DNA from: a bacterium
GTDB taxonomy: Bacteria; Fidelibacterota; Marinisomatia; Marinisomatales; JAHJCW01
DNA: 64,000 bases
Reading direction: 5' to 3'
Assembly: GCA_028282845.1 (NCBI GenBank)
Contig: JANQGY010000013.1
Span: 197,350 to 261,349, forward strand
Position numbers and translations under genes: made by a program. The notes beneath the pieces are model-generated. The model searched no databases. It was not told where the DNA came from and saw only the letters and a program-made list of their open reading frames with translations. Position 1 is the stretch's first letter; the number at the start of each line of letters is the position of its first letter. Shown piece after piece: positions 44,230-64,000 of this stretch.

Positions 44230-46728
44230 CTATGCGCTTGGACTTATTCCGATATCGGGTTTATCGGTTTTGGGGATTACAGTTTTGGATTTCTTTTTAG
44301 CTTTTTTCGCCTCCGCTTTTTCGCGATCCTCTTTCAGCACTTTCATTGTCTGTTCAACCTCTTCTTTGGTAACCTCCTTGCGCATTTCCTCTAATTCCTT
44401 CATCGTCCGAGCCCATTTTTGTCCCTCGGCCGCGCTAATCCATTCAAGCTGTAAACGTTCGGGGCGTATTCCAAGCCGTTCGAGTTTGTCCCATAATTTT
44501 TCAACGCGTTTTTGCGTCCAACGATTAGCATCAATGTAATGGCAGTCAGCAAAATGGCAACCCGATACAAGCACAATTGGCGCCCCTTTTTCAAAAGCGT
44601 GCAATACAAACTCAGAGTCAACACGCCCGCTGCACATTGTCCGTATTATTCGTTGAGTTGTAGGATATTGCAAGCGCGATAATCCTGCCAAGTCTGCTCC
44701 GGCATATGAACACCAATTACAGGCGAATACCGTTATTGTATCCATGGGATTTTTTTCAAGCGAAGCATCAATTTGAGATATATATTGTGAGTCCTCAAAA
44801 TGCTTCATAGCAAGTGCATCAAAATTACATTCTGCTGCACAAGTACCGCAGCCTTTGCACATTGCTTCAATCACTTCTGCTTTAAGTCCGGCTTTGGCGT
44901 CGGCTCCGCGAATTGCATTAAACGGACATACATTCACGCATATTCCGCAAGATGTGCAAAGATCAGTGTAGCACTCCGAAGTAATTGCCTCAATATTTAT
45001 CATATCGGAATTAAGCAATACTTCCGAACGTGCCGCTGCTGCACTTGCCTGAGTTACACTGTCTTTCACATCTTTGGGGAACTCGGCACACCCGGCAAAG
45101 AAAACTCCGCCCGTTGGTGCATCAACCGGTTTCAATTTTGGATGCGATTCCATGAAAAAGCCATCTTCAGTTTTAGATAATGTCAGCAGTTTTTGAACTG
45201 CGCTACTATCACGTCGTGGAATTACTCCAACTGAAAGTACCACTAAATCAAAGTCATAATCTTTAACGGTATTCGCCACCGTGTCCTCAACAATCAGTTT
45301 TAGATCATTAGTTTTCGGATCCTCGAAAATTTCACCCGGTAAACCACGGATGTACTGAACACCCGCTTTTTTACTGCGAATGTACAGATCTTCGAATCCT
45401 TTGCCGAAAGCCCGGATATCCATATAGAAAACTGATATTTCAGTATCGGGATAATGATCTTTTAATAATAGACTATCCTTAACCGTGTTCATACAACAGA
45501 TATTGCTGCAATATGGGTTTCCAACTTCGGAATGCGAACGCGATCCAACACATTGAATAAAGGCAATTCGCTTTGGTACTTTATGATCGGTCGGTCGAAT
45601 AAAATGTCCTTCTGTTGGTCCACCCGCCGAAATCAGTCTCTCAAATTCCATGCTCGTAATAACGTTTTCGTATTGAGTATAACCGTATTCATCCATTTCT
45701 GTCGGATCGTATACATCCATTCCGGTGGCAACAATCACCGCACCAACGTCCAATTCGATTATCTCATCTTTCATATCGAAATCGATACATTCCTTTTCGC
45801 AAACATCGGCACATTTACCGCAGGCAATCGGATTATTTCCAAGACAGTCACCATCATTTAAGATATACACGGATGGGACGGCTTGCGGGAAAGGCATATA
45901 TATCGCTTTGCGGGATGAGAAACCTTGCTGAAATTCATCGGCTACAGCAACCGGACAAACCTTTTCACACTCGCCGCAGGCATTGCATAGGTCTTCATCA
46001 ACATAACGAGCCTTGCGGCGCACCTTTACTTTAAAGTTGCCAATATAACCGCTAACGTCCTCGACTTCGCTGTAAGTGTATAAATTAATATTGGGATGTC
46101 GACCGACATCCATCATTTTCGGTCCGAGTATTCATATGGAACAATCCATAGTGGGGTAAGTCTTGTCTAATGTAGCCATTAGCCCACCAATGGATGCCTC
46201 CTTCTCAACCAAATTAACTTGATAACCGGCGTCGGCAAGATCTAAAGCCGATTGAATACCGGCTACGCCACCGCCGATAACCAATACTTCCTTTTTCATT
46301 GGTACTTTGGATTCTATTTGTTCTTCAAGCAACCGCGCCCTTGCAACCGACATTCTGACCATGTCTTTAGCTTTGCTCGTGGCTCCATCATAATCATCTA
46401 AATGTGCCCAACTACAATGCTCACGGATATTGGTCATCTCCATTAAATAGGGATTCAAACCGGCTTCCTGAACACAGTTTCTGAAGGTTGGTTCATGCAT
46501 GCGCGGCGAGCAAGATGCCACAACTACTCTATTCAAGTTGTGTTCTTTTATATATTTTTTAATTTCCTGTTGTCCGGGTTCCGCACAAGTGTATTTGTTC
46601 ACCACCGAACAAGTTACATTCGGAAGAGTGGCAGCATAATCGGAAACCGCTTGGCAATCAAGCGATCCGGCAATATTGCGACCACACTCACAAACGAACA
46701 CACCTACGCGTAGATCGTTTTCACTCAT
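44230..46728 (-). CDS. hdrA: Heterodisulfide reductase subunit A-like flavoprotein fused to an MvhD domain; selenocysteine (UGA at 46132..46134) read-through joins two track ORFs
   Basis: Both ORFs are in the same frame. The junction reads [36 protein letters not shown], a contiguous HdrA motif. Also present: FAD motif [16 protein letters not shown], four CxxCxxCxxxCP clusters, and MvhD block [31 protein letters not shown]. Confidence 0.85.
46101..46124 (-). promoter_or_regulatory. Candidate bacterial SECIS hairpin downstream of the hdrA UGA
   Basis: gaccga-N12-tcggtc stem-loop starting 8 nt 3' of the UGA. Confidence 0.4.
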
Positions 46729-46767
46729 TCTATTTTCCTGTCTTATCGACTAGTTTAGTAAAATTTT

Positions 46768-60914: not shown

Positions 60915-61257
60915 TTCTTAAATCTGGTAATGTAGTTGGATTTTGTTGATTTGGAAGATTATTCCAGCCGTTGCGCATACTTTGCCTCCTGTTTAATATA
61001 CTTTCAGCTCTACTTTGTAAAGAATTAAGATTTTCCTCAATTTCAGTTAAATTTCTTATTATATAGAAACCTCTATTACAACTGCCTATAAGATTACCTC
61101 TATTAATTGCGTTACGAATTACATCTCTCATTTCAACTTCAACGCCGCGATCAGAAATTCCAAAAAATACTGCTAATTCGGTTGCAGTTATTGAATTTTC
61201 GCGACCTATGTGACCATTATTATTCAGATACAATATCAATTCATGAATTTCTGGCAT
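60901..61257 (-). CDS. Small putative winged-helix DNA-binding protein between the methyltransferase and nuclease genes
   Basis: 118 aa. ITATELAVFFGISDRGVEVEMRDVIRNAI resembles an HTH. It overlaps both neighbours (17 and 14 nt). Confidence 0.4.
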   Translation of the reverse strand: MPEIHELILYLNNNGHIGRENSITATELAVFFGISDRGVEVEMRDVIRNAINRGNLIGSCNRGFYIIRNLTEIEENLNSLQSRAESILNRRQSMRNGWNNLPNQQNPTTLPDLRIESI

Positions 61258-62545
61258 AATTATCCTCCAGATTAATAAATTTATTTAAATATTTAAAATC
61301 AAATTCTTTGTCAACATTTACTAATCCATTTTTTATTAAATGGGCATTGACAAAAGTTTTATTTTTTAAATAAACGTACCCTAGAATATTGTTATTTGAG
61401 TCAAATTTTATTTCATCATGCTTTAGAAAAATTCTCTGATTTTTAAATTTTTGTTTTAGAAATTCTATCGCTTGACCATTTTTGGTTGAATCTGTCTTTA
61501 CTCCTATCAGGCGTATTTTCAAACCATTTTCTAAGGCAATAAGCTCCGGTGAAATTATTTCCTTTACTTTGTGGTATTCTTCTCTGTGTTGTGAATTTTT
61601 ATCAATCTTTGATCCATATTGTAATTTTTTTGGGTCAACCTTTTTATTAAAAGTGTGATTATCTTTAAAAATATAGGGTAGTTTTTGAATCCTATCTTTG
61701 AAGTTTGTATCTTTTGATTTTTGTTCAATGAATTTGTATTCGGAGGGGAATATTTCGTTTTGATTTATGTCTAACTTATCTTTGATAAAAGGAATAAAAT
61801 CTTTATTAATTTCATATCCCCAAGAATTTCTTTCTAAATTTTTAGCTGCTAAGGAAGTTGTTCCACTACCCAAAAATGGATCTAAAATTGTATCACCAAC
61901 GAATGAAAACATTTTAATTAATCTTTTTGGTAATTCCTCAGGGAACATTGCAATATGTCCATCCTGCTTTGCTCCATTAAAATTCCAATGTCCTGAGAAA
62001 TATTTCTTCCATTCTTCAGTTGTCAATTTTGATTGTTCCTTTAATATTGGATCAGGTTTAATCGGAGTACCAAGTTTTTTTAAAATTAAAATGAATTCGT
62101 AGTCGATTGATACAATACCATTTTTTGGGAATGGAAAACTTCCCATAATGCTGGCTCCACCAGTTGTATTCATTGTAGTTTGCTTTTGCCAAATAATTGC
62201 ACCCATATAATCAAAGCCAATAGATTCACAGAATTTGATTATTTCTGTTCTTATGGGAATTACTTTATATCTTCCATAATAAACTGCGCGGGCAAATTGG
62301 TCACCGATATTGACACATAACCTACTTCCATTTTTTAGCACTCTATGACATTCACTCCATACAAGATTTAAGTTATTGATATAATCCTCATAACTATCAT
62401 CAAAGCCTATTTGATTTTCAGCTTCATAATCTTTTAATTGCCAATAAGGAGGTGAAGTAATAATTAAATCAATTGTCCGATCTTTTAGCTCAGACATATT
62501 TCGGCAATCGCCTGTTATTATTGTATGGATTGTTTTAATGTTCAA
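61241..62545 (-). CDS. Beta-class N4/N6 DNA methyltransferase with a C-terminal degenerate SNase-like (OB-fold) domain
   Basis: Motif IV DLIITSPPY precedes motif I DPFLGSGTT. The C-terminus IRLIGVKTDS...ILGYVYL...NAHLIKNGLVNV resembles thermonuclease but lacks the DAPE catalytic residues. Confidence 0.88.
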   Translation of the reverse strand: MNIKTIHTIITGDCRNMSELKDRTIDLIITSPPYWQLKDYEAENQIGFDDSYEDYINNLNLVWSECHRVLKNGSRLCVNIGDQFARAVYYGRYKVIPIRTEIIKFCESIGFDYMGAIIWQKQTTMNTTGGASIMGSFPFPKNGIVSIDYEFILILKKLGTPIKPDPILKEQSKLTTEEWKKYFSGHWNFNGAKQDGHIAMFPEELPKRLIKMFSFVGDTILDPFLGSGTTSLAAKNLERNSWGYEINKDFIPFIKDKLDINQNEIFPSEYKFIEQKSKDTNFKDRIQKLPYIFKDNHTFNKKVDPKKLQYGSKIDKNSQHREEYHKVKEIISPELIALENGLKIRLIGVKTDSTKNGQAIEFLKQKFKNQRIFLKHDEIKFDSNNNILGYVYLKNKTFVNAHLIKNGLVNVDKEFDFKYLNKFINLEDNYARNS

Positions 62546-62588: not shown

Positions 62589-62891
62589 TTACTTCTTCCC
62601 ACAAGCCCCTTTACAACCACCACCGCTGATAACCATCACACCAAATATAAATCCGAAATCGTACCAACCACCGTTATTATAGACTTCATAAATTGAGACA
62701 GTATCTTTAAATAATGATATGATAAAAGTTACCGGTGTAATTATGCCGTGCCATAAGCCAAGCCAAAAACCGGCTGCTTCACCATCTTTGGCGACCGTAC
62801 CGACCAACTCGTTGGGGCCGGCTGTGCAGGAAATGATTGCCAATATAACGAATGAAAATAGTAATAACATTGTTTTCTTATTCATGTTCAC
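62589..62891 (-). CDS. Small lipoprotein/membrane protein with a Gly/Cys-rich C-terminus
   Basis: Signal peptide with lipobox (AIISC), two hydrophobic segments, and a C-terminal GGGCKGACGKK. Confidence 0.5.
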   Translation of the reverse strand: MNMNKKTMLLLFSFVILAIISCTAGPNELVGTVAKDGEAAGFWLGLWHGIITPVTFIISLFKDTVSIYEVYNNGGWYDFGFIFGVMVISGGGCKGACGKK

Positions 62892-62896
62892 TCCTT

Positions 62897-63946
62897 TTAA
62901 TTAACTGAAATTATATTTTTATTCTTAGCAATTATCTCTCCGATAATCACTGCTTTTATATCTGATAATTTGTTGAACTCATTAATATATTCTTCCGCTT
63001 TTTCGGGTGCAAGCGATATTAAAAGTCCACCGGAGGTTTGCGCATCGGCGCATAGCAATTTATCTATTTCGCTGATATTCTTCGAAAAGGCTACCTTATC
63101 TTTGATAAAATTGAAATTCCGTTTGGTGCCGCCGGGTAAAATACCTTTTTCGGCGGTTGCTTTTACGGTTGGTAAAAATGGCAAATCAGCATAATTAATA
63201 TTTGCCGATACGTTGCTGGCCTGACACATTTCCGCTAAATGTCCGAGCAGTCCGAAACCGGTTACATCGGTAGCGGCGTTCACGCCGACACTTTGCGTCA
63301 CTTCAGCCGCTAATTTATTTAGTGTTGCCATTGATTTGGCAGATGCTTGTACGGCTTTGGAATCAGCCGCCCCGCGCTTTACCGCCGTGGCGATGATGCC
63401 GGTGCCGATCGGTTTAGTAAGGATTAACTTATCGCCAACTTTGGCGGTACTATTGGTAATTAATTTAGCTTCATCAATTTCGCCGGTTACAACCAAGCCG
63501 TATTTCGGTTCGGGATCGTCAACACTATGTCCGCCAACGATCGAAATCCCCGCCTCTTCCGCTTTATCTATTCCGCCCTGCAGTATTTTGGACAGGTCGG
63601 ATTTGGGCAGTGTATTGATCGGAAAGCCGATGATATTTAGGGCAAATAATGGTTTGGCGCCCATAGCATAAATATCGGATAATGAATTAGCGGCAGCAAT
63701 TTGACCGAAAATGTAGGGATCGTCATCAATCGGTGTGAAAAAATCAACGGTTTGCACTAATAATCGTCCATCGCCGAGGCGCACTACGGCGGCGTCATCT
63801 TTGTCATCGTAACCGACAAGGATGCGTTCATCACGCTTTGACTTAAGGTTACTCAATACTTGAGCAAGGTCCTCCGGACCGATTTTGCAAGCTCAGCCCG
63901 AACCGTGTGTAAGCGTAGTTAAACGTATTTTTTCTTTTTTGTCCAT
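62897..63946 (-). CDS. selD: Selenide, water dikinase (selenophosphate synthetase) SelD, selenocysteine-containing (UGA at 63893..63895)
   Basis: Extending the track ORF upstream in frame gives MDKKEKIRLTTLTHGSG-U-ACKIGPEDLAQVLSNLK..., the SelD glycine-rich active-site loop with U at the Cys/Sec position. The rest is AIR-synthase-like (DDAAVV, VQTVDFFTP, GGHSVDD). Confidence 0.9.
63864..63888 (-). promoter_or_regulatory. Candidate bacterial SECIS hairpin downstream of the selD UGA
   Basis: gcaa-aatc-ggtcc-gga-ggacc-ttgc begins 4 nt after the UGA. The apical loop contains GG. Confidence 0.5.
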
Positions 63947-64000
63947 TATATTCTAAAAATTAAAGACAGAATTTGACGGTTTTTATATGGAATTTGCAAA

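Follow-up and report, generated by a model that had tools for sequence, protein, structure and literature searches.

The selD gene lying at the end of the analyzed window (a 64,000-nucleotide stretch of DNA, G000:C13:197350-261349) is almost certainly an ordinary bacterial gene of the Sec type, in which the in-frame UGA at 63895-63893 is read as selenocysteine at residue 18 of the product. The mechanical ORF list opened this gene at a TTG codon and gave it as 62897..63856, encoding 319 aa, against 349 aa for the full product: because the catalytic residue is encoded by an in-frame UGA, stop-to-stop ORF calling drops the first 30 codons. The preliminary description of this DNA had claimed both the missing 30 codons and a frame open from ATG 63946 except for one TGA; both held, with all coordinates checking (TGA at 63893-63895). 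The minus-strand sequence at the start reads ...TAG AAT ATA ATG GAC AAA AAA GAA..., and because of the TAG no start other than ATG 63946 is available ahead of the TGA. Orthologues share this start position, their sequences opening with M-(D/T)-K-K-E-K-I-R-L-T. With the TGA translated as U, the N-terminus of SelD reads MDKKEKIRLTTLTHGSG-U-ACKIGPEDLAQVL. The features of the gene and of the other candidate selenoprotein genes are collected in Table 1.

Table 1. Features of selD and of further candidate selenoprotein genes. Positions are those of the window, except for entries with a contig label (C8, C10, C15), which lie elsewhere in the same genome (G000).
Feature	Position	Strand	Remarks
Full-length selD coding sequence	62897..63946	-	349 codons plus TAA; UGA as predicted Sec at codon 18
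True ATG start of selD	63944..63946	-	TAG two codons upstream; start position shared by orthologues
UGA, predicted to be read as Sec (residue 18)	63893..63895	-	sole in-frame TGA; aligned with Cys17 of E. coli SelD
Hairpin H1, GGUCC-GGA-GGACC	63868..63880	-	5-bp stem, 3-nt loop; upper hairpin of the preliminary description
Hairpin H2, UGCUCAA-GUA-UUGAGUA	63850..63866	-	7 pairs conserved, extended here to 8 bp (63849-63867)
TTG start of the ORF list, really Leu31	63854..63856	-	inside the 3' arm of H2
TAA stop of selD	62897-62899	-	ends the 349-aa frame
HdrA (candidate), CSI-U (TMDCSI-U-ILGPK)	44230-46749, TGA 46134-46132	-	GGUC loop 27 nt from UGA, 7-bp hairpin
Prx-like 1 (AhpC/TSA family, candidate), W-U-PVC	G000:C15:112526-112891	+	GUU loop 17 nt from UGA
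Prx-like 2 (AhpC/TSA family, candidate), G-U-SSC	G000:C10:87010-87363	-	GGUC loop 14 nt from UGA
Rdx/SelW-like (candidate), CNE-U	G000:C8:16478-16693	+	GUU loop 22 nt from UGA

The identity of the 349-aa product was clear from its family scores, which reached 405.4 bits with the selD equivalog model TIGR00476 (cut-off 125) and 391.4 bits with NF002098 (cut-off 299), the HMM matches covering residues 4-344. The two-domain PurM-like architecture was present, residues 50-157 forming AIRS (PF00586, 102.9 bits) and residues 169-347 forming AIRS_C (PF02769, 82 bits). The best matches among solved structures were to the SelD of E. coli (3u0o, residues 5-339, E = 8.9e-84) and to that of Aquifex aeolicus (2yye, residues 5-342, E = 3.2e-71). 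In the alignment with 3u0o, HGSG-U-ACK fell on HGAG-C-GCK, with U18 on Cys17 and K21 on Lys20, which are the two essential loop residues of the E. coli enzyme; the N-terminal extension accordingly corresponds to SelD's catalytic loop. The DDAAV, DFF, SDI(Y/F)AMG and TDVTGFGL motifs were identical in the alignment to the PDB SelD structures. The proposal of a Sec-type SelD with U at the Cys/Sec position of the glycine-rich loop was borne out by the family scores and by the U18-Cys17 alignment, the extension matching the active-site loop in both the E. coli and the Aquifex structure.

The protein resembles the Cys-type E. coli SelD in its AIRS/AIRS_C fold domains, Lys20 and Asp-containing motifs, but differs from it in having UGA/Sec (GSG-U-ACK) in place of Cys17 (GAG-C-GCK). 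With the Sec-type SelD proteins of Aquifex aeolicus (2yye/2zod) and Haemophilus influenzae it shares Sec where E. coli has Cys17, in the glycine-rich loop, as well as a stem-loop within the coding region 3' of the UGA. The Aquifex loop SSG-C-AAK aligns with HGSG-U-ACK; the native residue of the Aquifex enzyme is Sec, the crystallized form being a Cys variant.

Conservation of the UGA was followed in a set of 41 genomes, comprising 40 of the same order and the present one. SelD was found in 38 of them, with exactly one in-frame TGA in every full-length orthologue, and all 30 same-order orthologues that were extracted read G-S/A-G-U-A-C/S-K at this site. In other phyla (Gemmatimonadota, Chloroflexota, Myxococcota and others) the aligned site was TGA in 33 selD genes and TGC/TGT in 10, in a sample biased toward sequences similar to the query. 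If, on the contrary, the TGA were a true stop, the gene would either encode a truncated SelD starting from TTG 63856, where the mechanical ORF call does begin, or be a decaying pseudogene. The truncated product, however, would be devoid of the glycine-rich catalytic loop bearing Sec/Cys17 and Lys20, and its TTG is an internal Leu codon within a conserved hairpin. Moreover, the 17 codons 5' of the TGA show protein-level conservation throughout the order together with an invariant TGA, which is unexpected for untranslated sequence, and the genome has the full Sec machinery as well as further selenoprotein genes. Termination at this codon is, therefore, highly improbable.

Additional SelD-like sequences were observed in three of the relatives. 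Two genomes had a second SelD-like region without TGA, lying within open frames of 733-742 aa (G034:C12:55780-56808 and G007:C193:2636-3637). In a third, a 52-aa copy of the SelD N-terminus including the TGA, with 54% identity, was located at G028:C34:32442-32597, approximately 6.5 kb from the full-length selD on the same contig, and may represent a duplicated fragment.

The genome itself, a 2.26-Mb assembly of 19 contigs with 92.7% completeness, encoded the components of Sec decoding beyond the window, where the preliminary description had suggested looking for them. Two adjacent genes of contig C18 were identified as selA, at 538 bits with a cut-off of 268, and selB, at 349 bits with a cut-off of 242, and a tRNA-Sec was found on contig C7 (RF01852, 62.4 bits with a gathering score of 47; identified as tRNA-SeC with anticodon TCA by ARAGORN); none of the three adjoins selD. 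At its C-terminus the SelB protein had the winged-helix domains responsible for SECIS RNA binding (SelB-wing_3, 55 bits; SelB-wing_2, 22.3 bits). Together with the Sec-HdrA gene inside the window, these findings support the Sec-decoding trait that had been deduced from the window. No match to selU/ybbB (TIGR03167) was obtained in the 92.7%-complete genome, giving no evidence of a selenouridine trait, so that within the assembled genome SelD appears to serve Sec synthesis. A molybdopterin oxidoreductase similar to FdhA, at G000:C17:266630-268765 on the plus strand, gave the single match to TIGR01591, at 562 bits and thus below the equivalog cut-off of 666 bits. No in-frame TGA was present in this FdhA-like gene, indicating that the Sec trait of the genome is not tied to Sec-FdhA. 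This fits a published pattern, in which Sec-decoding organisms without Sec-FdhA carry Sec-SelD (PMC1794560).

Beside selD, four further candidate selenoprotein genes with typical motifs were recognized in the genome (Table 1). The UGA codons of all four precede hairpins with G-U loops, as that of selD precedes H2 with its GUA loop; such a hairpin follows 3.0% of all 94,006 TGA triplets in the genome, a contrast which is overstated, since the G-U-loop criterion was set after viewing the five sequences. These genes also bear on the alternative that the selD UGA is decoded as Trp, or as Cys, by a near-cognate or reassigned tRNA as in genetic code 4. The selD frame is equally open with TGA translated as W, and Cys at residue 18 would also be functional, given that Cys-type SelD genes exist. 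Against this, TGA also terminates genes in this genome, for example at the end of the Rdx-like ORF, and the in-frame TGAs are single and placed at redox-active Cys positions (UxxC, CxxU) rather than at Trp positions. Furthermore, the genome has selA, selB and a tRNA-Sec dedicated to the purpose, its anticodon being UCA, and the UGA of selD is associated with a conserved RNA structure that is lost in Cys-type genes. The chance of such a Trp or Cys decoding is, therefore, very slight.

Decoding of the selD UGA as Sec is inferred from these sequence data. In the predicted pathway, translation would start from ATG 63946, and SelB with its load of Sec-tRNA(Sec) would be recruited by an RNA element that lies within the gene, a short way 3' of the UGA. 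Residue 18, in the glycine-rich loop HGSG-U-ACK, would thereby become Sec, where E. coli SelD has its catalytic Cys17. The complete enzyme of 349 aa would then produce selenophosphate from selenide and ATP, and SelA would use the selenophosphate to charge tRNA-Sec. Since this charging needs selenophosphate, SelD would depend on its own product.

The RNA structure 3' of the UGA consisted of two adjacent short hairpins, H1 and H2. The preliminary description had placed a single hairpin here, beginning 4 nt after the UGA and composed of a GCAA/TTGC lower stem and the upper hairpin GGTCC-GGA-GGACC; the upper part, H1, proved to be conserved, while the lower stem, although pairable in this gene, was broken in most relatives. 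The lower stem (GCAA at 63888-63885, TTGC at 63867-63864) showed no covariation and was not above shuffles, 22 of 30 genes had its pair 22-42 disrupted, and its formation is in competition with H2; it was rejected as a conserved feature. A closing stem including the UGA, which appeared in larger-window folds, was set aside as well: it was not conserved in the orthologues, and the ribosome would melt it.

H1 is separated from the UGA by a 12-nt spacer, its loop beginning at 17 nt, and has a stand-alone energy of -7.2 kcal/mol. Pairing was retained in 91% of its cells in the alignment of 30 orthologues. Because H1 hardly varies, its synonymous sites were tested against the codon usage in the rest of each gene. 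Gly was encoded by GGU in 28 of 30 genes as against approximately 30% expected, and none of 200,000 simulations exceeded 20/30; with expectations likewise drawn from the remaining codons of the genes, Asp was GAC in 29/30 (29% expected) and Glu was GAG in 16/22 (18% expected). This codon bias points to H1 being held by selection at the RNA level, acting on synonymous sites. In the Sec-type selD of other phyla a longer helix of 7-8 bp occupied the place of H1, with the pairing register shifted by 2 nt between phyla. The sequence of the H1 loop was variable, being AAA or CAAAA in several orthologues and CCC or CCA in most Gemmatimonadota, and in these loops neither of the first two positions is a G.

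H2, which was absent from the preliminary description, has a 3-nt loop, GUA, beginning 33 nt past the UGA, and a stand-alone energy of -6.2 kcal/mol (z = -3.85). In the register taken from RNAalifold, compensatory changes were found at four of its seven pairs, and none of 500 shuffles matched the observed covariation. A register two columns off was discarded: it gave no signal, with 58.7% pairing and the best score at the -2 slide. The loop was GUN in 61 of 63 Sec-type genes. Across phyla, H2 was present in the same register with 92% pairing among 50 distinct Sec-type genes. Its pair 45-55 was C-G in 20, G-C in 18 and U-A in 7 of the genes across phyla, changes that entail amino-acid replacements (Gly, Ser, Arg) and so are not explained by base composition alone.

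When both hairpins were scored together in the 30 orthologues, 89% of the cells were paired, against 52-55% with the 3' partners slid by one column, and doubly changed cells numbered 27, where shuffles gave 12.8 +/- 2.5, none of 500 shuffles reaching the observed score. A comparison of Sec- and Cys-type genes at equal GC served as the control for coding constraint: at a GC of 0.70 the Sec-type genes had 6.93 of the 7 pairs of H2 and a best stem of 7.6 bp for H1, against 4.2 of 7 pairs and 4.4 bp in the Cys-type genes. The two hairpins are not kept in Cys-type genes. Three Cys-type selD genes of Gemmatimonadales that are close to Sec-type ones (L051, L052 and L053) had partial remnants of H2, with 3-5 of the 7 pairs. 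Such remnants are what a recent Sec-to-Cys conversion, a process described previously (PMC1794560), would leave.

The published bSECIS model (PMC13188914) demands an apical loop of 3-9 nt with G in its first two positions, usually G[G/U], an upper stem of 4-16 bp, a distance of 16-37 nt from the UGA to the apical loop, and an MFE of -7.5 kcal/mol or lower. With regard to the SECIS prediction proposed as a check in the preliminary description, both H1 (5 bp, GGA, 17 nt) and H2 (7-8 bp, GUA, 33 nt) of this gene fit the loop, stem and spacing rules. An Rfam search of 63700-64000 with E <= 10 gave only chance snoRNA/miRNA matches and no SECIS family. With respect to the energy threshold of -7.5, each hairpin alone was slightly too weak and the two together reached -13.4 kcal/mol. 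The present selD is AT-rich, and fold energies down to -15 to -20 occur among orthologues. Folds of single sequences had modest z-scores (-1.2 to -2.2). Like the E. coli fdhF SECIS and the bSECIS consensus, the selD element is a stem-loop structure 3' of the UGA with a small loop beginning with G(G/U) and a stem of at least 4 bp, but it is composed of two tandem hairpins instead of one long hairpin. From Sec-containing bacterial SelD such as those of A. aeolicus and H. influenzae, the present one differs only in its Marinimicrobia lineage and in details of the recoding element, here a pair of adjacent short hairpins.

As to which hairpin would be bound by SelB, the balance inclines toward H2 as the putative SelB-binding hairpin, with its GU loop 33 nt from the UGA and H1 as a conserved structured spacer. 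A distance of 33 nt falls toward the upper limit of the bSECIS range (16-37 nt). The reverse assignment, with H1 as the SelB-binding SECIS, possibly on the GCAA/UUGC lower stem, and H2 as accessory or unrelated, is a less probable option but one of some weight. The minimal SECIS spacing in E. coli fdhF is 11 nt, and H1, with a 12-nt spacer and its loop at 17 nt, comes close to that geometry. H1 is also strongly held at synonymous sites, with a longer helix in the Sec-type selD of other phyla, and its GGA loop, with G first, fits the bSECIS rule (PMC13188914). However, the loop of H1 is not conserved, its register differs among phyla, and its lower stem does not covary and competes with H2; in addition, the four other selenoprotein UGAs of the genome precede G-U loops, which H1 does not have. 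The small probability left after these two assignments would fall to H1 and H2 both being required.

A bipartite, SelD-specific recoding element common to Marinisomatota, Gemmatimonadota, Chloroflexota and Myxococcota is a tentative and rather unlikely extension of these observations. In such an element, H1 would form a spacer helix at the ribosome entry site and the G-U-loop hairpin H2 would stand approximately 33 nt from the UGA, both being needed; a reduction of the effective spacing to H2, or a pause imposed on the ribosome, might be the role of H1. If true, the combination of H1 and H2 would represent a distinct class of bSECIS, not covered by the single-hairpin model. A literature search found no described two-hairpin SECIS in selD, which leaves an earlier description possible.

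As the preliminary description had it, selD is the last gene of the window, and the contig (C13, 455 kb in total) runs on. Upstream of selD, on the same strand and separated by a gap of 54 nt, lies a 267-aa ORF without a Pfam match (L047:1351-2154 on the minus strand, corresponding to G000:C13:261350-262153, past the window end); beyond it are a 2-oxoacid:ferredoxin oxidoreductase pair, a fumarase and a PBP1 gene. Right after selD, with a few-base overlap with its stop region, a 100-aa ORF (window 62589-62891, minus strand) was observed, with a lipoprotein-like N-terminus (LAIISC), a Gly/Cys-rich tail and no Pfam match. Two genes downstream of selD, a 434-aa ORF (61241-62545, minus strand) combines an N6/N4 DNA methylase with a C-terminal staphylococcal-nuclease-like domain.

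Among prokaryotic selenoprotein families SelD ranks second in breadth of distribution (PMC13188914), and genes of this kind are routinely truncated by annotation pipelines (PMC13188914; PMC1794560). The Sec-type selD arrangement is already well known and common, and the present result is a correction of annotation and not a discovery. Its practical value is in restoring the catalytic N-terminus of SelD that is lost in standard ORF calling, and the genome is to be listed among the Sec-decoding ones, its candidate selenoprotein genes numbering at least five. The only mildly new point is the two-hairpin layout of selD conserved across phyla, which could refine the bacterial SECIS models.
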